NCBI GenBank assembly: GCA_045631845.1
Contig: JAZQVM010000045.1
Coordinates: 3,563 to 67,562, forward strand
DNA: 64,000 bases
Origin: Eubacteriales bacterium
GTDB taxonomy: Bacteria; Bacillota; Clostridia; Oscillospirales; UMGS1783
Direction of reading: 5' to 3'
Both the position numbers and the translations under genes were made by a program. Below the pieces are notes generated by a model that worked only from the letters and a program-made list of their open reading frames with translations, made no database searches and was not told the origin of the DNA. Positions 2,751-19,929 of this stretch are shown here, in pieces. Position 1 is the first letter of the stretch. Each line of letters starts with the position of its first letter.

Positions 2751-3796
2751 TATTTCTCCTGCATTTTCTTAATTTCCAGCATTAACTCATCCAACGCCCG
2801 CTCCGCCGGTACTTTGCGCAATACTTGTCCGCCACGAAACAGCATATATTCATCCACACCGCCGGCCAACCCGATGTCCGCCTCCTTCGCTTCACCCGGC
2901 CCGTTGACAATACATCCCATAACCGCCACCGTAATCGGCATGTCCACATCCGCCAATCGATCTTCCACCTGCTGCGCCAAGGACACTAAGTCCACCTTGG
3001 TGCGCCCACAAGTCGGGCAGGACACCACCTGCACCCCTCGATTTGACAATCCCAGCGCCCGCAAAAGCTTATAGGCCGCCTTAACCTCCTCAACCGGATC
3101 CGCGGTTAACGATACCCGCATCGTATCCCCAATCCCGTCCAACAATAAGGAACCAATACCTACGCTGGACTTGATGATGCCGTTAATCAATGTACCAGCC
3201 TCGGTCACCCCAATATGTAACGGATATGGCGACTGTTCATGCAACAACCGATTACAAGCCACCATCTCCGGCACCCGTGAGGACTTAACCGAAATTACAA
3301 TATCGTCAAAATCAAAGCGCTCCAAAAGTGATGCACTGTATTTCGCACTCTCACAAAGCGCCTCCGGACATACGCGTCCGTATTTCTCTAAAATATTTTT
3401 CTCTAATGAGCCCGAATTCACCCCCACACGAATCGGAATCCCCGCCATACGGCAGGCATCCGCCACCGCCTTGACCCGCTCATCCGACCCAATATTACCC
3501 GGATTGATGCGAATCTTATCCGCACCGGCCGAAATCGCACCAAGGGCCAGCTTATAATCAAAATGAATATCCGCAACCATCGGCAACGGCGACCGCTCAC
3601 GAATCTTAGCAAACGTCCTTACGGCCTCTTCATCCGGCACCGCCAACCGTACAATCTGACATCCCGCCTTTGCAAGCCGTTCAATCTGCAATAAACAACC
3701 CTCAACATCATGCGTGTCAACCGATAACATACTCTGCACCGATACCGTTGCGTCACCCATACAGATATCGCCAACATATACTCGCTTACGCTCCAT
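2750..3796 (-). CDS. ispG: 4-hydroxy-3-methylbut-2-en-1-yl diphosphate synthase (MEP pathway)
   Basis: 348 aa with GcpE-like sequence (RINPGNIG, SCPTCGRT Fe-S cysteines). TAATG coupling to rseP. Confidence 0.93.
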   Translation of the reverse strand: MERKRVYVGDICMGDATVSVQSMLSVDTHDVEGCLLQIERLAKAGCQIVRLAVPDEEAVRTFAKIRERSPLPMVADIHFDYKLALGAISAGADKIRINPGNIGSDERVKAVADACRMAGIPIRVGVNSGSLEKNILEKYGRVCPEALCESAKYSASLLERFDFDDIVISVKSSRVPEMVACNRLLHEQSPYPLHIGVTEAGTLINGIIKSSVGIGSLLLDGIGDTMRVSLTADPVEEVKAAYKLLRALGLSNRGVQVVSCPTCGRTKVDLVSLAQQVEDRLADVDMPITVAVMGCIVNGPGEAKEADIGLAGGVDEYMLFRGGQVLRKVPAERALDELMLEIKKMQEK

Positions 3797-4805: not shown

Positions 4806-5951
4806 TTAGCCCCTCTCCATCAAAATATCCGCCGTCTGCCGCGCGAAACGGTCAGCTTCTATTATATCCTCCAAACTCGGATTTAACACATGCTCCACTC
4901 GAGAGCAAACTTCCTCAACAACCATCGGTATCCGATAAAAGGGAATCCGATCGGCCAAAAATGCCGCCACGGCACACTCATTCGCACCATTCAGAATGGT
5001 CGGCATCGTCCCGCCAACCGTGATAGCATACCGAGCCAATCCCACCAAACGGAAGGTCTCTTCATCGCAAGCATCAAAAGTCAATGTCCCCGCCCCGATC
5101 AAATCCAGCGGCTCAACAACCGCAGGCGTACTGTCCGGATAGGCCAATGCATATTGAATAGGCAGGCGCATATCGGGTACCCCCATCTGCGCCAACACAC
5201 TGTTATCCTCAAACCGTACCATCGAATGAACAATGCTCTGTCGATGCACCACGATCTCCACCTGCTCGGGCTTCACATCAAACAGATGCACCGCTTCAAT
5301 CAATTCCAACCCCTTATTCATCATGGTTGCACTATCAATCGTAATTTTTGCACCCATGCTCCAATTCGGATGCTTTAACGCCTGCTCCTTGGTCACTGTG
5401 CGAAGTTTCTCGGCACTATACCCAAAGAAGGGCCCACCCGATGCTGTCAAGATAATGGACTTTACATTACGCTTGGCATCCTGCAAACACTGAAAAATCG
5501 CACTATGCTCACTATCCACAGGCAAAACGCTTGCCCCGTGCTTCTTGGCTTGTGCCTTTACCAATTCACCACCGGTTACCAGCGTTTCCTTATTGGCCAA
5601 GGCCACATCTTTTCCTGCATGCAACGCCGCTAACGTTGGCCGCAATCCAGCAATGCCAACAATGGCATTGAGAACAACATCTGCCGAATCCCATGTCGCC
5701 AGATCCTCAACCGCCTTCGCTCCGCCCAAAACCACCGTTTCGGTATCGTTAACACGAACACGAAGATCAGCCGCCGCCTGCTCATCCGCCATAACGGCCA
5801 ACGGGATATGATGAGCCCGAATAATCTGCTCCATCCCTGCCACATCACGGTTAGCACTCACGCCTGCGATTTCATATCCGTTTTTTATGCAAACATCAAT
5901 GGCCGAACAACCGATTGAACCGGTCGCCCCCAAAAGAATAACCTGTTTCAT
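4806..5951 (-). CDS. dxr: 1-deoxy-D-xylulose 5-phosphate reductoisomerase
   Basis: N-terminal LGATGSIG NADPH fold, PVDSEHSAIFQC and LTASGGPF motifs. Confidence 0.95.
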   Translation of the reverse strand: MKQVILLGATGSIGCSAIDVCIKNGYEIAGVSANRDVAGMEQIIRAHHIPLAVMADEQAAADLRVRVNDTETVVLGGAKAVEDLATWDSADVVLNAIVGIAGLRPTLAALHAGKDVALANKETLVTGGELVKAQAKKHGASVLPVDSEHSAIFQCLQDAKRNVKSIILTASGGPFFGYSAEKLRTVTKEQALKHPNWSMGAKITIDSATMMNKGLELIEAVHLFDVKPEQVEIVVHRQSIVHSMVRFEDNSVLAQMGVPDMRLPIQYALAYPDSTPAVVEPLDLIGAGTLTFDACDEETFRLVGLARYAITVGGTMPTILNGANECAVAAFLADRIPFYRIPMVVEEVCSRVEHVLNPSLEDIIEADRFARQTADILMERG

Positions 5952-5962
5952 ATTTCCCTCTT

Positions 5963-6784
5963 TTAACTATATAGCGGATGCATCCACATTATGAAAAGAC
6001 ATACGCACGGCCCTACATACAACAAACTGTCAAACCGATCCAATACCCCACCGTGACCGGGCATCCATGATCCAAAATCTTTAACTTCAAAATTGCGCTT
6101 GATGGCCGACATCGATAGATCCCCAAACTGATCCAATACGCCACAGATCACGCCCAACATAATCAGCATCGGGAAACTCACCGTCACATGACAAGCCAAC
6201 AAAAGAACCAGCCCTACAATACCATAGATCACCGCCGAAATCACAACCCCGCCGATGAACCCCTCTACGGTCTTCTTCGGACTGATAACCGGAGCCAACT
6301 TATGCTTTCCACAAGCACGCCCTACAAAATAAGCACCCGTATCCGTTCCAAAACAACTCAAAAGAATTAAAATCAAATAGGCTAACCCCTGCGTCCGTAC
6401 ATAGGCAATGCTATTATACAAAATCGGAAATACCAGCGATATCGCAAAAACCATCCACGGCTTTTTCAGAGAATATGCCCCAAATTTCAACATATTCCAC
6501 CCACTTAATGCCATAGACAGAATGAAAACTACCGCCAACACAAGCAAATAGTACCGATAAGGCAAAAAAGAAAAACCAAGCCCCCATACCAAGGAAACGC
6601 CAAACAGCCCTCGAGCCATTTTACTCTGCTTCAACAAGCCGCTGACTTGAAACAATTCATACACCGCAAAGCCGGACAAGAAGGATACAACACCTTTCAT
6701 TACCCAAACAATATCGGAAAACACCAAGATCAAGGCGGTGCACAACCCGATAAAAAAGCCGGTAATTACCCTCTGTTTGAGCAT
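5963..6784 (-). CDS. cdsA: Phosphatidate cytidylyltransferase
   Basis: Polytopic membrane protein with the C-terminal CTP-transferase signature (SAIKRNFEVKDFGSWMPGHGGVLDRFDS). Confidence 0.9.
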   Translation of the reverse strand: MLKQRVITGFFIGLCTALILVFSDIVWVMKGVVSFLSGFAVYELFQVSGLLKQSKMARGLFGVSLVWGLGFSFLPYRYYLLVLAVVFILSMALSGWNMLKFGAYSLKKPWMVFAISLVFPILYNSIAYVRTQGLAYLILILLSCFGTDTGAYFVGRACGKHKLAPVISPKKTVEGFIGGVVISAVIYGIVGLVLLLACHVTVSFPMLIMLGVICGVLDQFGDLSMSAIKRNFEVKDFGSWMPGHGGVLDRFDSLLYVGPCVCLFIMWMHPLYS

Positions 6785-14312: not shown

Positions 14313-14429
14313 ATCGGACTGCGCCTCCTTATATACTATTTTATTATTGTAACAGATTTCCATGGGGATTACAATCATTTTTTGCAAGATAAAAGACCGG
14401 GAAATCCCGGTCTTTTATCTTGCAGAATG

Positions 14430-14609
14430 TTACATGCTTTCCTCAACGGACTTGATCATCTTCTTAACCATCTGGCCACCGATCGAACCGGCCTGCTTGG
14501 AGGTCAGGTCGCCGTTGTAGCCCTGCTTAAGATTGACACCAACTTCGTTAGCACATTCCATCTTGAAACGATTCATGGCTTCTTTAGCCGAAGGAACCAT
14601 AGCGCTCAT
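14430..14609 (-). CDS. Alpha/beta-type small acid-soluble spore protein
   Basis: MSAMVPSAKEAMNRFKMECANEVGV...LTSKQAGSIGGQMVKKMI is the classic alpha/beta SASP signature. Start at 14609 (AAAGGAG SD); the longer ORF-track start contains the SD itself. Confidence 0.9.
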   Translation of the reverse strand: MSAMVPSAKEAMNRFKMECANEVGVNLKQGYNGDLTSKQAGSIGGQMVKKMIKSVEESM

Positions 14610-14735
14610 TGATATTTCTCCTTTACTCAAAATATAGTGGTTGCACTATTATTTTATCCTTCGCCATTCTCGTTATAATTTGAAATATATGTAAAGCATT
14701 GAGATCTAATCGCATTCCTAACAATGACATGCATA

Positions 14736-15344
14736 CTACATATCAACAAAATCTATCTGCGAACAGGAGATCTCCCATGCCGTCATTTCCTTCTCACCCG
14801 TTTCGATCTTCTTTATGTAATTTCGACTTTGAATACGCCCCCAAATGTGCAACATATCCGATTGCCTGAGCGATTGAACAAAGACGGAATCTCTGCCCCA
14901 TGCCAAGCATGGAATATAATCACATCGGCCATATCGCCGATTCACTGCCAACATGATATCAGCGATCTCTCGCCCAAGCGGAGTTGTTCGATGAATGGGT
15001 GTTTTACATAAAAAACCAGCCAACTCGATCTTGTTTTCATGCTCTAACGGTTCGACGCATATCTGAACTTCCTGCGCAAAAACATACAAGATTAAACGAC
15101 GACGACCTTCCACATCCATATTTTTAGATCGAAACTCTCCGGTAATTTCCAGCAAATCCCCAACATCCACATAACGCTTTGGAAATAAGCGTTCGGATAC
15201 GACTACCGATATACGGTCGGGCTGTCCGCTTAGCCGATCGACTCGAAGAATAAATGTATAAAAATTCTCCCCGTATGCTTGATGACCGGACGTTGGCAAT
15301 TGATCGACGACGCCACGCAAAAAAACTGAATTTGTGCAGTTCAT
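14736..15344 (-). CDS. SSB-family protein with two tandem OB folds and no acidic C-terminal tip (function unknown)
   Basis: Second half has LAVNRR...WGRDSV...WGRIQSRNY, as in canonical SSB. The first half aligns to the second (N.[VI].L.G...L.V.R..G..D.I...D.L.I.G...S.N). Start at MNCTNS, with ATGA overlap onto the upstream stop and a GGAGAAAGGG SD. Confidence 0.6.
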   Translation of the reverse strand: MNCTNSVFLRGVVDQLPTSGHQAYGENFYTFILRVDRLSGQPDRISVVVSERLFPKRYVDVGDLLEITGEFRSKNMDVEGRRRLILYVFAQEVQICVEPLEHENKIELAGFLCKTPIHRTTPLGREIADIMLAVNRRYGRCDYIPCLAWGRDSVFVQSLRQSDMLHIWGRIQSRNYIKKIETGEKEMTAWEISCSQIDFVDM

Positions 15345-15874
15345 ATATTCCCTTTCTCCTGTGTCAACAATAACAGTGCGCATGCCAATATAGCAGAAGG
15401 CACATCCCAAATTTGAGCATGATAGATATGATCCTGTATCTCTATGGATTCACCATTTACATTTTGCACATCCCGCCCTACCGTCAGCACGATGGCATCA
15501 TCGGCAATACTGGAGATAGAGAGCGTATTTCGTTCTCCAACTCCGCAGGTAACCGGCCGTAACCCTCGCCGCTCAATAAAGCGACAATGAGCGGCATCCT
15601 CCGGATCAAAGACAACAAGCGCATTCTTTTTTATACAACCATACGGCAAATCATGAATATCTGCAACATCATTTCCGATCAATACGATATCGGCACCGAA
15701 ATCACAAGGTCCCGCAACATTTCGCAGTTCCAATATTAAAAGCTCTGTTGCCGCATCCCCGCACACGGCACCTGAATCGGCCGAAACATATAATAATCCA
15801 CGACAATTACGGACAATTTCAATAAATTGTCGCGGATCAAAGTTTTTGCCCGGTATCATTAGTACCTTAACCAT
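15341..15874 (-). CDS. Hypothetical protein; by-eye resemblance to a Mur-ligase central domain with a degenerate P-loop
   Basis: 177 aa. MIPGKNF sits where Mur ligases carry GKT. LLILELRN, ADIVLIGNDVADIHD, ALVVFDPEDA and VTCGVGERN resemble Mur-ligase central-domain blocks. AGGAG SD; 3-nt gap after the pdaB-like stop. Confidence 0.45.
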   Translation of the reverse strand: MVKVLMIPGKNFDPRQFIEIVRNCRGLLYVSADSGAVCGDAATELLILELRNVAGPCDFGADIVLIGNDVADIHDLPYGCIKKNALVVFDPEDAAHCRFIERRGLRPVTCGVGERNTLSISSIADDAIVLTVGRDVQNVNGESIEIQDHIYHAQIWDVPSAILACALLLLTQEKGNI

Positions 15875-15877
15875 GCC

Positions 15878-16669
15878 TTACACTCCTACCGTTTCTTTTG
15901 GTTGCTCTATCTGATATTGTTGCCCCGTATGATCCATATTATAATTTTCCGTATAGATCAGTTCAGATATCTTTATCAATTCAATCCCCTTCTCTTTGGC
16001 ATAGTCCAATATCGCAGGCAATGCTTCGGGCGTATGCAGGGCAGCATTATGGAACAAGGTAATCGAACCGGCTTCCATTTTTTTTGTTACACGAGAGGTA
16101 ATTTCTTTAGCCGAAAGATCTTTCCAATCCAAACTGTCAATCGACCATTGTATGGTATAATAACCGTTTTCCAATAGGGTATTTACTACCTGATCGTTAT
16201 AATCGCCATAAGGCGGACGGAACAGATGCGGACGAACACCCGTTACTTTTTCAATTTTATCCGAGCATGCGTTGACCTGTTTGAGCATATCCTCGGGAGA
16301 AAGTTTTGTCATATAGGGGTGGGTATCGGAATGATTCATAATTTCGTGACCGGCATCATGCAACGCCTTAACCGATTCCGGATATTTATCCACCCATTCT
16401 CCTACCACAAAAAAGGTGGCCTTCACCTCGTATTTGGCCAAAATATCAATAATTTGCTGGGTATCCTCATTGCCCCATGCCGCATCAAAGGAGATAGAGG
16501 CTTTGTTATCGTTTCGCTTTACGCTGTAAATAGGAAGGCTACGTGAGGCCATCGTTGTGCTCATTGCACTTTGCACCACACTACCTGAAAAGATCACAGC
16601 CGCCAAGGTCACAACCACAAGCACTATCGTTGCAATAACGGCATTCTTACGAAACACTACAATTTTCAT
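15878..16669 (-). CDS. Polysaccharide deacetylase (NodB domain), PdaB-like, N-terminal membrane anchor
   Basis: NodB motifs SFDAAWG, HEIMNHSDTHP, LFRPPYG; N-terminal hydrophobic helix. Confidence 0.85.
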   Translation of the reverse strand: MKIVVFRKNAVIATIVLVVVTLAAVIFSGSVVQSAMSTTMASRSLPIYSVKRNDNKASISFDAAWGNEDTQQIIDILAKYEVKATFFVVGEWVDKYPESVKALHDAGHEIMNHSDTHPYMTKLSPEDMLKQVNACSDKIEKVTGVRPHLFRPPYGDYNDQVVNTLLENGYYTIQWSIDSLDWKDLSAKEITSRVTKKMEAGSITLFHNAALHTPEALPAILDYAKEKGIELIKISELIYTENYNMDHTGQQYQIEQPKETVGV

Positions 16670-16752
16670 ACAGTCACCCTCCTGTCTTTACAACCTATTC
16701 GCAATATAGCGCAAATATGCAAAGATGGCGGCAGTTCCCCTGCCGCCTCTCT

Positions 16753-17778
16753 TTAGCAATAAAATTCCATAGGATAGGTTAAATATTCGACCGGCTCTAA
16801 TTGATCAACCGTAACAACTCCGGCCGGCGCACATAAAACACTGGGAATACGATTTACAACCGTCGCACAGGTATGCTCAACCGTGGCGGGTTTCACCACC
16901 TGAAATTCGGTCTCCGGCTCACCGATCATTCGCCACTGACACATATCACCGTCATCCTCTCCATATACCTTACCGATACATCGAGTCTGAATGACAGGAC
17001 CCTGATGAGTATAGGTTTCCACAATGGCGGCCATACCTAAGCATTGCCCCTCGGTAATTTCTCGCCCAAGGGTTGTCGAATACACGCTTCCTTTTTCGAA
17101 ATACGGGACATGTTTTTGGGTTTGGGAACGGATTGTCCAGCCCATTTTCTGCGCCAATGCCTCATTGGAATTCCAAACATAGGAAGGTTCAAACTGTTCA
17201 GGCTCGCCTATCTTTTGCTGAAACTCATCGTAGGTCAAGCCCACGCCGTGAGCCTTAGCCAAGGCCAATCCGTAATCCTCTACATTATAGCTAACTGCAC
17301 CCTCAATGCGAGAAATATTGTGACAGCCGGCAGCAATATGCGCTACAGCATTAACCCAAAAGATATCCTCCATGCCGCTTCCCACAAAAGTACAGCCGTT
17401 ATCTTTGGCTATTCGATCCAATTTATTGGTGCGTATCGGATCGGTAGTCCAACTATAGGTGGCTTCCTCACATGTAGTGATAACATTAATACCTCGGCTT
17501 AAACATTTCACATAATGCTCATAGCAGTCACCTACAAAGCTAAACAAGGTTACAATGGCGATATCGGCATCAACATTGTCCAATACGGCATCAGCATCAT
17601 CGCTGATCAATATGCCCGTTTTAAATCCAAGATCGGCATATTCTCCGATATCCATGCCGACAATCTGCGGATCTACATCAATGGCACCCACAATTTGTGC
17701 CCCTTTATCATGAAGATAACGCAAAATATATTTACTCATCTTGCCACAACCGTACTGTACAACCTTAATCTTGCTCAT
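16753..17778 (-). CDS. NAD(P)-dependent amine dehydrogenase family protein (2,4-diaminopentanoate dehydrogenase / DapB-N-like)
   Basis: N-terminal [13 protein letters not shown] Rossmann fold, overall resemblance to Ord-type dehydrogenases. Start at MSKIKV (AGGAG SD 8 nt upstream). Confidence 0.6.
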
Positions 17779-17834
17779 AATTCCTGCTCCTATTATATTT
17801 TTGTGATTAGTATAGCCACATCCTTTCATTCTAT

Positions 17835-17865
17835 ACAAAAAGCCTCCGAAACGTGTTCGGAGGCT
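17835..17865 (-). terminator. Rho-independent terminator after rnfB
   Basis: Hairpin AGCCTCCGAA-N5-TTCGGAGGCT followed by TTTTGT on the minus strand. Confidence 0.75.
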
Positions 17866-17869
17866 TTTG

Positions 17870-18703
17870 TTACTGACGGGTATCCCCGTTTTTCATTTGA
17901 AATTCGCCAAACCATATCGTACTTCTCGGACATTTCTCGAAGCAGGTTCCGCATTGGATGCATCGATCATAGTCGATTTCCGCCAAGTGATTCACAACTT
18001 TAATAGCATCCGTCGGACAATTTTTCTGGCAGATGCCACAGCCGATACACCCGATTTGGCAATAGGAACGAACCATCTTACCATGATCACGGGAGGAGCA
18101 GCCCACCCAATATTGACCCGAAAACGGAACAAGATGAATGATATGCTTGGGGCAGGCATTGGCACACAAACCACAGCCTACACATTTTTCATATTCCACC
18201 ACCGCTACGCCGTTTTCCACCTTGATCGCACCAAAGGGGCAAGCACGCACACAAGTACCGTACCCCAAGCAACCATAGGGACATTCTTTATCACCGCCGC
18301 CAATACGGGATACCGACACACAGTCCATCAGCCCGTCGTATTGGAATTTATGACGAGCCAGATCATTAGTACCCGAGCACATCACCTGTGCACGCAAACG
18401 AAGGGTGTCCGACTTTGTTTCCTCACCCATAATCTTACCGATCTGTTCAGTAACCTCGGGCGGGGCAGCCATGCACTTGTTACCGGGAACCTTATCATTG
18501 ACAATGGCTTCGGCATAGTTGGCACAGCCGGCATACCCACAAGCACCGCAATTGGCTCCGGGTAAAATATTTTTGATATCATCAATGCGCTTATCCACTT
18601 TGACTTTAAAGGCTTTACTGGCAATACCAAGCAAAGCACCGAAAATCAGCCCAAAGACACCCAGCGGAATAAGGGCGCGCAAGACCTGTTCAAATACAGT
18701 CAT
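17870..18703 (-). CDS. rnfB: Rnf complex subunit B (polyferredoxin)
   Basis: N-terminal TM helix, CGACGYAGC cluster motif, several CxxCxxCxxxCP 4Fe-4S motifs. Confidence 0.92.
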
Positions 18704-18715
18704 CTTTTTCCCTCC

Positions 18716-19303
18716 TTACCCGAATATCTTCATACCGGAAAATCCGGAGAAGGCGATGGCCAACAAGGCCGCCGTAATCAAGGCAATAGGAAATCCCTTG
18801 AACGGCTTGGGAATATCATTCAGTTCAATTCTCTCTCGTACACAGGCAAAGATGAAGATTGCCAACAAGAACGACACGCCCGAAGCGAAACCGTAGAAGG
18901 TAGCCAAGCCGAAATCATACTGGCGCTGGATACCTAAAATAGCCGAACCGAGAACGGCACAGTTGGTCGTAATCAAAGGCAGATAGATGCCAAGCGCACG
19001 GTAAAGGGACGGAATCATCTTCTTAAGGAACAACTCAATGAATTGCACCAGCGAGGCAATGATCAAAATAAAGGAGATCGTTTGCAGATATTCCAGTTCA
19101 TACGGCACTAAAACAAAGGTATTATCCAACCAGGTAACCATAGACGACAAGGTCATGGTGAAAATAACGGCCATACCCATGCCAACGGCAGTGCTGCGTT
19201 TTTTAGAAACCCCTAAAAACGGACAAACACCCAAGAACTGCACCAGTACATAGTTTTCAATAAAGATAGTAGTGATGGCTACCGAAAAATAGGTCTGCAA
19301 CAT
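18716..19303 (-). CDS. rnfA: Rnf complex subunit A
   Basis: Polytopic RnfA/NqrE-like sequence (FLGVCPFLGVS). Start at MLQTYF, with TAATG overlap onto rnfE and an AAGGGGG SD. Confidence 0.92.
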   Translation of the reverse strand: MLQTYFSVAITTIFIENYVLVQFLGVCPFLGVSKKRSTAVGMGMAVIFTMTLSSMVTWLDNTFVLVPYELEYLQTISFILIIASLVQFIELFLKKMIPSLYRALGIYLPLITTNCAVLGSAILGIQRQYDFGLATFYGFASGVSFLLAIFIFACVRERIELNDIPKPFKGFPIALITAALLAIAFSGFSGMKIFG

Positions 19304-19929
19304 TAGTTGTCGCCCCCTTTCCATTTGTCGGAAAGCTTATTAAAAGCGGCAATCAAGAACCCAAGTGCCAGGAAGCCACCGGCAGGCAGAATCATAATAA
19401 CAGCCGGTTCATACCCGATGTACTGCGCAAAATCCCAGCCCAGGATCTTTCCCGAACCTAAAATTTCACGCACGGCCGAAACAATGATTACAACCAAGGT
19501 ATAGCCAATACCCATAGATAATCCATCCAGCACCGACATAAGCGGATTATTTTTAGAGGCAAAACTTTCGGCACGAGCCAAGATAATGCAGTTTACCACA
19601 ATCAGCGGGATAAAAAGACCCAAGGCTTCAGATATATCCGGTAAATATGCCTCAAGAAGCATCTCAATAGCCGTAACAAATCCCGAGATAATAACGATAA
19701 AGGCCGCAATACGAATCTGATTGGGAATGACCGACCGAAGCAAAGAAATGACAAGATTAGCCCCAATCAAAACCGCCGTAACGGCAAGCCCCATGAAAAA
19801 TCCGTTTTTTACACTTACGGTAATGGCAAGTGCCGAACACATACCGAGCAACTGCACAAAAACAGGATTTTGATTGAGGATACCGTCCATGAATATTTTA
19901 CTGATTTTATTTGGTTGTTTCTCACTCAT
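19303..19929 (-). CDS. rnfE: Rnf complex subunit E
   Basis: RnfE/NqrD-like (NPVFVQLLGMCS). Confidence 0.92.
   Translation of the reverse strand: MSEKQPNKISKIFMDGILNQNPVFVQLLGMCSALAITVSVKNGFFMGLAVTAVLIGANLVISLLRSVIPNQIRIAAFIVIISGFVTAIEMLLEAYLPDISEALGLFIPLIVVNCIILARAESFASKNNPLMSVLDGLSMGIGYTLVVIIVSAVREILGSGKILGWDFAQYIGYEPAVIMILPAGGFLALGFLIAAFNKLSDKWKGGDN

Follow-up and report, generated by a model that had tools for sequence, protein, structure and literature searches.

Organization of the locus

In a 64,000-nucleotide stretch of the genome of an Eubacteriales bacterium (contig JAZQVM010000045.1, positions 3,563 to 67,562; the whole stretch is called the window here), three tightly packed minus-strand genes encode a polysaccharide deacetylase, a protein of an un-annotated family and a tandem-OB single-stranded DNA (ssDNA)-binding protein, and a gene for an alpha/beta-type small acid-soluble spore protein (SASP) follows. 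We refer to the 177-amino acid (aa) product of the middle gene as MID and to the 202-aa product of the third gene as SSB2; sampled homologous loci carry L-numbers (L001 etc.). The coding sequences are:

15878..16669, minus strand: pdaB-like polysaccharide deacetylase, 263 aa, stop TAA; N-terminal membrane anchor, NodB domain
15341..15874, minus strand: MID, 177 aa; degenerate stand-alone Mur-ligase middle (ATPase) domain, un-annotated family
14736..15344, minus strand: SSB2, 202 aa; tandem-OB ssDNA-binding protein, PRK05813/EndoTT family
14430..14609, minus strand: alpha/beta-type SASP, 59 aa; separate transcription unit with its own promoter and terminator

Read on the minus strand, a GGAGGG ribosome-binding site precedes the ATG of the pdaB-like gene, 3 nt (ggc) separate the TAA of this gene from the ATG of the MID gene, and the MID stop codon TGA overlaps the SSB2 start codon within ATATGA (ATGA overlap). 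The three coding sequences are translationally coupled, and the junctions are as described in an earlier note on this DNA, which had taken the genes to be co-translated. The SSB2 start at ATG 15344 follows GGAGAAAGGG and agrees with the starts of the homologues; for these reasons the alternative start at TTG 15410, corresponding to a 224-aa frame in the list of open reading frames, is disfavoured. The SASP gene starts 126 nt downstream of the SSB2 stop codon, and a terminator scan of this interval revealed no terminator-like structure. The SASP product matches Pfam PF00269 (1.7e-28, 98.8 bits, cutoff 22), which supports the SASP neighbour and the sporulation context proposed in the earlier note. 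The SASP gene is followed by a terminator recognized by direct reading:

14391..14412, minus strand: intrinsic terminator after the SASP gene, GACCGGG-ATTT-CCCGGTC-TTTT

MID is a decayed Mur-ligase middle domain

Judging by eye, the earlier note had described the 177-aa protein as a Mur-ligase central domain on its own, its P-loop broken and containing GKN. MID had no match in Pfam, NCBIfam or PDB sequences, ten distant relatives scanned against Pfam and NCBIfam gave no matches either, and a word-indexed search returned only 17 close clusters. With a profile, we retrieved 239 proteins (at 50% identity) from 1.8 billion representatives; all of them are 160-200 aa long, without extra domains, and none is annotated. 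The family consensus is M..I...G...D ... ITCG.S.KDT.S.SS.....V.SLQR......G..IEP.E ... LLL.

An AF2 model of MID built from 18 close homologues was unusable (pLDDT 54.6), and the model was rebuilt from 107 sequences, reaching a pLDDT of 91.6 and a pTM of 0.89. The Foldseek comparison proposed in the earlier note was then made against the PDB: ranks 1-40 were occupied solely by Mur-ligase-type enzymes (MurC, MurE, Mpl, FPGS and cyanophycin synthetase) with E-values of 5e-7 to 1e-2, a probability of 1.0 and query-normalised TM scores of 0.5-0.63, and the later matches were weak and unrelated. Among PDB sequences, the profile picked up no more than a marginal match, to the YukB N-terminal domain (residues 15-64, E = 0.021), which we take to be FHA-like. 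An FHA-like C-terminal half was considered for MID and dropped, since the confident model matches Mur ligases over its full length.

Homologues from other loci connect MID to the Mur ligases at the sequence level. In an Epulonipiscium metagenome-assembled genome (MAG; L012), SSB2 is immediately preceded by a gene that agrees with the MID profile at 2e-20 and with Pfam Mur_ligase_M (PF08245) along the whole length (3.7e-12, 47.1 bits, cutoff 24); its product starts with MVKVGILGNHGKTAA and contains IVNADD and ITYGFNSKASITASSI. The L010 homologue, which matches the MID profile at 2e-18, reaches 23.4 bits against PF08245 (cutoff 24). Two segments of MID are informative in these alignments:

15836..15856, minus strand: Walker A remnant of MID (IPGKNFD, residues 7-13), between strand 1 and helix 1; aligns to GNHGKT of L012
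15509..15547, minus strand: most conserved motif of MID, CGVGERNTLSISS; family consensus ITCG.S.KDT.S.SS

The N-terminus of MID reads MVKVLMIPGKNFD and indeed contains GKN. The lysine of this motif (K10) is variable even among the closest homologues, and the family consensus at this place is G...D. Aligned with each other, the homologues show a series of Walker A decay from GNHGKT (L012) via G-----D (L010) and GKSTDT (Caproiciproducens) to PGKNFD (window). By comparison, C110, G111, T117, S122 and R134 hardly vary among the 107 sequences, and the motif CGVGERNTLSISS corresponds to ITYG...ASITASSI of the Mur_ligase_M-positive homologue.

The confident fold match together with the sequence intermediate L012 establishes the Mur-ligase ancestry of MID. 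Therefore, we conclude that MID is a stand-alone Mur-ligase middle domain with a decayed Walker A motif, in which the lysine and threonine have been lost, and the reading made by eye was correct. Because these residues and the N- and C-terminal substrate domains are gone, MID cannot be an ATP-dependent ligase. It shares the fold of the central ATPase domain with MurC/D/E/F, Mpl, FPGS and cyanophycin synthetase but differs from them in consisting of the middle domain only (about 175 aa), in the loss of Walker A and, for the window protein, in having no Pfam match. MID thus represents a clean case of a peptidoglycan-synthesis enzyme domain decaying to a pseudo-enzyme, with an intermediate that retains Walker A. 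This intermediate, the 224-aa L012 homologue (3080-3753), has an intact Walker A (GNHGKT), NADD and ITYG but neither an N-terminal nor a C-terminal Mur domain, and might still bind ATP as a stand-alone middle domain.

SSB2 belongs to a widespread clostridial family of tandem-OB proteins

SSB2 passes the NCBIfam equivalog NF004476 (PRK05813) with 225.5 bits (cutoff 171), its residues 4-201 aligning to profile positions 8-208 of 219, and has two stretches matching Pfam PF00436 (SSB). The two OB folds are:

15057..15332, minus strand: N-terminal OB fold of SSB2, residues 5-96; aligns to PDB 4GS3 (E = 4.4e-14)
14742..15035, minus strand: C-terminal OB fold of SSB2, residues 104-201; aligns to the SsbA/SsbB structures 5xgt, 6bhw and 3vdy (E = 5e-9 to 2e-5)

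The C-terminal OB fold carries TPLGREIAD, AVNRRYGRCD and WGRIQSRNY. Compared by BLASTP, the two halves show a weak resemblance to each other (26% identity over 73 residues, E = 1e-4), and the protein ends with ...QIDFVDM, without an acidic D-D-D-I-P-F-type tip. These results bear out the description of SSB2 as a duplicated SSB-type OB fold without the acidic tip. SSB2 remained under the cutoff of the canonical SSB model TIGR00621 (24.7 bits, cutoff 53.95) and of the NCBIfam SsbA/SsbB equivalog models, as well as under that of the PriB model TIGR04418 (primosomal replication protein N; 14.2 bits, cutoff 72), and its E-value with PDB 4APV was 0.25.

The family comprises 1615 homologous clusters at E <= 1e-3, and at least 597 relatives were confirmed among one-genome-per-species Clostridia assemblies; those listed in this genome scan are all at most 50% identical to the window SSB2. 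The hosts among the matches listed are Lachnospiraceae, Blautia, Oscillospiraceae, Ruminococcus, Epulonipiscium and Christensenellaceae. A two-OB SSB paralogue is thus ordinary for Clostridia, and the view that such a chain would be unexpected in a Firmicute had to be given up.

A member of this family has been characterized. Tte0829 of Thermoanaerobacter tengcongensis, which is assigned to PRK05813, was described as EndoTT, a protein that binds and cleaves ssDNA in vitro, with G170, R172 and G177 being required for cleavage; the homologues listed for it include CD3235 and CAC2382 (PMC2887958). Its N-terminal OB domain was crystallized under the name of T. tengcongensis 'PriB' ('TtePriB', PDB 4GS3; PMC4129139), although the TIGR04418 score given above does not support homology of this family to proteobacterial PriB. 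SSB2 has in common with EndoTT/TtePriB the NF004476 equivalog membership, the length class, the two OB folds per chain and the absence of the SSB C-terminal tip, and it keeps the motifs TPLGREIAD, AVNRxYG, WGR and GRIQSRxY.

The SSB proteins of Deinococcus-Thermus (PDB 2CWA, 2FXQ and 1SE8) also have two OB folds per polypeptide, so that a dimer provides four OB folds. They are, however, housekeeping proteins with a C-terminal acidic tail, whereas SSB2 is a sporulation-linked accessory paralogue that lacks the tip and arose independently; only its C-terminal OB fold aligns to them, and weakly (E = 1.7e-5 to 0.58).

At L004/L005, a stand-alone SSB2 copy with a long acidic tail lies amid many small unannotated open reading frames, in what may be a mobile or phage region. 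In addition, tRNA-like sequences, e.g. GGTTCGATTCC T-arms, lie 5' of this stand-alone SSB2 (L004/L005, about 5890-5960) and 5' of MID in L007 (about 4850-4920).

The deacetylase is PdaB-like

The product of the first gene matches Pfam Polysacc_deac_1 (1.9e-39), and its best NCBIfam match is TIGR02764 (spore_ybaN_pdaB), followed by YlxY, PgdA and PdaA. Since the TIGR02764 score of 210.9 bits is under the trusted cutoff of 237.4, PdaB orthology is not established, and we call the protein PdaB-like rather than PdaB; it is a membrane-anchored, NodB-type member of the PdaB/YlxY sporulation group. The NodB motif 1 (residues 56-62, 16483-16503) reads SFDAAWG, as it also does in L015, and the second, metal-binding Asp of the canonical TFDD is absent; the NodB motifs HSDTH, RPPYG and DSLDW are present. 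We take an SFDAAWG-type motif 1 to be typical of PdaA/PdaB-type sporulation deacetylases. The NodB domain and the N-terminal anchor are shared with B. subtilis PdaB (YbaN) and YlxY/PdaA, with the PdaB equivalog scoring best, and the difference from PdaB lies in the score below its cutoff. B. subtilis PdaB also provides a precedent for mother-cell expression: ybaN, which we equate with pdaB through the name of TIGR02764, belongs to the mother-cell programme and is bound by SpoIIID (PMC517825).

The neighbourhood is a mosaic of four genes

The tight trio recurs, with overlaps of 4 to 14 nt or a gap of 18 nt, in L001, L090 and L091, where the SSB protein is 76%, 70% and 56% identical to that of the window, and in the distant L026. 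Therefore, the arrangement is not an accident of this contig. Downstream, L001 has the same genes as the window, i.e., SASP, RpiR, HI0933-like and cmk. The full quartet of pdaB-like gene, MID, SSB2 and SASP is present in the window, L001 and L026, and L090 and L091 have at least the trio.

We counted the linkage of SSB2 over 80 species-level loci that carry it. A PdaB-like gene is directly upstream in 18 of them, all outside the Lachnospiraceae-type group, and a MID-like gene is directly upstream in L010, L012, L014, L018, L019 and L026, while a SASP gene is directly downstream in L026, L040 and L056. Lachnospiraceae carry SSB2 alone. One locus with a typical Clostridia pdaB-SSB2 pair, L073 (JAMPEJ010000005.1), is labelled as a Corallococcus (Myxococcota) MAG, probably by a binning or labelling error.

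Distant MID loci comprise the order Polysacc_deac-72aa-MID-SASP in Caproiciproducens (L006), MID-SASP (L007), MID with a SASP gene 1.6 kb away (L009) and MID alone (L008). A further 30 MID loci came from metagenomes by a DNA-pattern scan that samples only the I-T-C-G...K-D-T subset of the family; none of these 30 loci has an SSB2 neighbour or a deacetylase gene directly upstream. The neighbourhood is a mosaic of four genes, the commonest pairs being MID-SASP for MID and, outside Lachnospiraceae, pdaB-SSB2 for SSB2.

The operon and the SASP gene have different putative promoters

The region 5' of the operon contains two elements:

16727..16747, minus strand: G+C-rich hairpin at the end of the upstream gene, insulating the operon promoter (direct reading and hairpin scan)
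16692..16720, minus strand: putative sigma-E-type operon promoter, GCATATT (16720-16714), 14-nt spacer, AATAGGTT (16699-16692)

Equivalent hairpins sit immediately 5' of the promoter in L001 and L090. The promoter boxes are GGTATATT...AATAGGTT in L001, GCATATT...AATAGGTT in L090 and GCATATC...AATACTGT in L091, and the window and these three loci have the common pattern G(C/G)(A/T)ATAT(T/C)-N14-AATA..., in which the boxes are conserved and the spacer is wholly different, as expected of a promoter. The sigma-E consensus of B. subtilis is kmATAww, 14 nt, CATACA-T; the -35 box and the spacing of the operon promoter fit sigma-E well, and the -10 box fits in part. Directly after the putative -10 box and overlapping the ribosome-binding site, the window (16681-16691, minus strand), L001 and L090 contain TTGTA(A/G/T)(A/G)GAC(A/G)G. 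Its GGACA-like core resembles the SpoIIID box, for which it is no more than a candidate.

Stand-alone SSB2 genes were analysed by an expectation-maximisation motif search, in which the last 30 nt of the upstream regions were left out, as a first run had converged on the ribosome-binding site. Upstream of 60 such genes, the search yielded de novo the motif GTTcTAaA-N14-gcATAaAtaT (log-likelihood 306 versus 110-120 for shuffled sequences), with GTCATAAT, GGCATATT and GGTATAAA as -35 variants. The motif has a sigma-E layout (ATA-type -35, 16 nt, CATA.A..T), which agrees with the data for the C. difficile homologue, and the putative operon promoter of the window shares its architecture. Sigma-E promoters of this organism have an ATA -35, 16-18 nt and a CATA-type -10 (PMC3789822). 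CD3235 ('ssb') is SpoIIID-repressed (3.6-fold up in a spoIIID mutant) and has a sigE/wild-type ratio of 0.03 (33-fold down). A sigma-E promoter is assigned to it, the spore proteome column of that table shows no detection, and the polysaccharide deacetylases CD3257, CD3248 and CD1319 fall into the same regulatory class (PMC3789822). CD3235 is thus a PRK05813 homologue like SSB2 and a sporulation-specific mother-cell gene of the regulatory class of polysaccharide deacetylases; in contrast to SSB2, no operon joining it to a deacetylase or MID gene is reported.

The SASP gene has a promoter of another type:

14650..14678, minus strand: putative sigma-G-type SASP promoter, TTATA, N17, TAAAATA; conserved in L001 and L090

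The promoters of 18 sampled SASP genes have the sigma-G architecture xxATA-N17-CA.A.TA, followed by GCAAACGCA. Right after the SASP -10 box, the element AaAATAaTAntGCAAACgCa recurs across distant lineages (log-likelihood 223 versus about 85 for shuffled sequences), its carriers including L006, L007, L009, L092, L098, L099, L105, L111 and L133; within it, GCAAACGCA resembles a conserved 5' leader or transcript start. A weaker form, GTGCAACC, precedes the SASP gene of the window (14641-14656, minus strand).

A proposed mother-cell operon followed by a putative forespore SASP gene

We favour the reading that the pdaB-like, MID and SSB2 genes form an early mother-cell operon of the sigma-E type, which is followed by an independent forespore SASP gene of the sigma-G type, and give it a probability of about 0.55. 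The operon and the SASP gene would probably be expressed in different compartments. Shortly after asymmetric division, sigma-E RNA polymerase would fire from GCATATT-N14-AATAGGTT. The PdaB-like deacetylase would be exported and act on the spore peptidoglycan, and the ATGA coupling would deliver MID and SSB2 in a fixed ratio to the mother-cell cytoplasm. There, SSB2 might bind ssDNA as an OB-fold pseudo-dimer without recruiting the usual SSB partners, and MID might serve as its non-catalytic binding partner or as a regulator, for which the conserved surface of a three-stranded sheet (ITCG.S.KDT.S.SS...LQR...G..EP.E) is the likely interaction site. A MID-SSB2 partnership is favoured because the pair recurs in unrelated lineages and is joined by the ATGA coupling.

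Several observations weigh against this reading. The -10 box AATAGGTT matches CATACA-T only at ATA and at the final T, a motif model trained on Lachnospiraceae gives the window promoter a low score of 6.5 bits, and what sets the consensus sequences of sigma-E and sigma-G apart is mainly a spacing difference of 1-2 nt. For the window operon, sigma-E control is something we infer, sigE dependence being known only for C. difficile CD3235, and the physical interaction of MID with SSB2 is pure inference. As no terminator lies between SSB2 and SASP, read-through is possible. A SASP gene is immediately downstream of MID on the same strand in 13 of the 23 metagenomic MID loci with enough downstream sequence, and several upstream regions of stand-alone MID genes look sigma-G-like by eye (xxATA-N17-xAxACTA); together, these regions and the SASP adjacency suggest forespore expression of MID in the lineages concerned. 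Finally, SSB2 has S, M and G in the alignment at the positions of EndoTT G170, R172 and G177 (SDMLHIWGR versus GDRIRLWGR). Of the three nuclease-essential residues only G177 is kept, and because G170 is replaced by S and R172 by M, a nuclease activity of SSB2 appears doubtful.

Some of these observations would fit a forespore or spore-nucleoid module, in which MID, SSB2 and the SASP act jointly on the forespore chromosome and are expressed from sigma-F/G promoters or by read-through; a spore or forespore nucleoid role had been suggested in the earlier note from the SASP adjacency. Besides the frequent MID-SASP adjacency in metagenomes, to which L006 and L007 add, the SSB2-SASP adjacency in L026, L040 and L056, the likeness of several stand-alone MID upstream regions to SASP promoters and the missing terminator speak for it. 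However, a position next to a monocistronic SASP gene with a promoter of its own is no proof of co-expression, and the motif found upstream of stand-alone MID genes scarcely exceeds shuffled sequences (126 versus 91-107), so that we assign these genes no sigma factor. The operon promoter has the 14-nt (7-mer/8-mer) spacing of sigma-E, B. subtilis pdaB is a mother-cell gene, and CD3235 is strongly sigma-E-dependent and missing from the spore proteome column (PMC3789822). Since the operon promoter fits sigma-E and the SASP gene has a sigma-G-type promoter of its own, we do not favour this explanation and consider it unlikely. A further reading, to which we would assign little probability, is that MID is the founder of an unrecognised sporulation family, a repurposed Mur-ligase ATPase domain that is non-enzymatic and works on the chromosome together with SSB2 and/or alpha/beta SASPs, possibly in loading or unloading DNA-binding proteins or in marking ssDNA during engulfment or spore maturation. 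If true, it would explain why more than half of the sampled MID loci have an adjoining SASP gene and why MID stands by SSB2 in several unrelated lineages.

A second alternative places the operon in the cortex pathway: MID would have kept the binding of a UDP-MurNAc-peptide, a nucleotide or a true Mur ligase and would tune the supply of cortex precursors in the mother cell, with SSB2 as a co-regulated passenger or with OB folds that bind a non-DNA ligand. The derivation of MID from a Mur-ligase ATPase domain is in line with this idea, as are the coupling of MID to a PdaB-like deacetylase in the window, L001, L090, L091 and L026, the presence of one nearby in L006 and the pdaB-SSB2 adjacency in 18 of the 80 loci. 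It is rendered improbable by the metagenomic loci, where 0 of 30 have a deacetylase directly upstream of MID, by the loss of the P-loop and of the substrate-binding N- and C-terminal Mur domains, and by the fact that members of the SSB2 family bind ssDNA in vitro.

Third, three functionally unrelated early mother-cell genes may have drifted into one unit as a matter of regulatory convenience, the mosaic then being local synteny; every pairwise combination occurs, SSB2 (Lachnospiraceae) and MID (L008) are also found alone, and the PdaB-type deacetylases of C. difficile share a regulatory class with the SSB2 homologue though they are not adjacent to it, but the start/stop overlaps are maintained and MID-SSB2 adjacency recurs where SSB2 is <50% identical to that of the window (Epulonipiscium, Cellulosilyticaceae, L026 and the window clade), so we hold this explanation, too, to be a poor candidate.

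These findings do not overturn current views of sporulation but fill in unannotated genes, and are of moderate interest for sporulation specialists. A literature search for a sporulation-linked Mur-ligase middle domain or for follow-up work on EndoTT found none. The MID family is undescribed, and SSB2, the deacetylase and the SASP are of known kinds. The earlier note knew of no function for the trio; we found no prior description of the trio itself or of the mosaic pdaB/MID/SSB2/SASP neighbourhood, whereas members of the SSB2 family have been described (EndoTT, PMC2887958; CD3235, PMC3789822). With its 239 representatives at 50% identity, the MID family could join sporulation gene catalogues. 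Clostridia of the gut and the environment widely carry the SSB2 family, which is strongly sigma-E-dependent in C. difficile; its repeated linkage to a PdaB-type deacetylase and to a dead Mur-ligase domain, the latter habitually beside a SASP gene, offers a handle on its role in vivo.

Upstream genes and other features of the window

Upstream of the operon lies a 2,4-diaminopentanoate-dehydrogenase-like gene (window 16753-17838; L001 3566-4591), which scores 148 bits with NF040740, far under the cutoff of 400. L090 has an equally sized gene (341 aa, 5713-6738) between SSB2 and SASP; this rearrangement is local and does not disrupt the trio. Further upstream on the same strand (17870-19929) are apparent genes of an Rnf electron-transport complex: a 277-aa protein falls into a 90% cluster with a 'Clostridia bacterium' MAG fragment named RnfB by NCBI, and the two membrane proteins after it resemble RnfA and RnfE by eye. 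An Rfam scan of the 64-kb window at gathering thresholds found no RNA family (no tRNA, riboswitch or leader). The GC skew of the window stays below zero until about 42 kb and again beyond about 54 kb, with values near zero in between, and every long open reading frame between 12.2 and 19.9 kb is on the minus strand.

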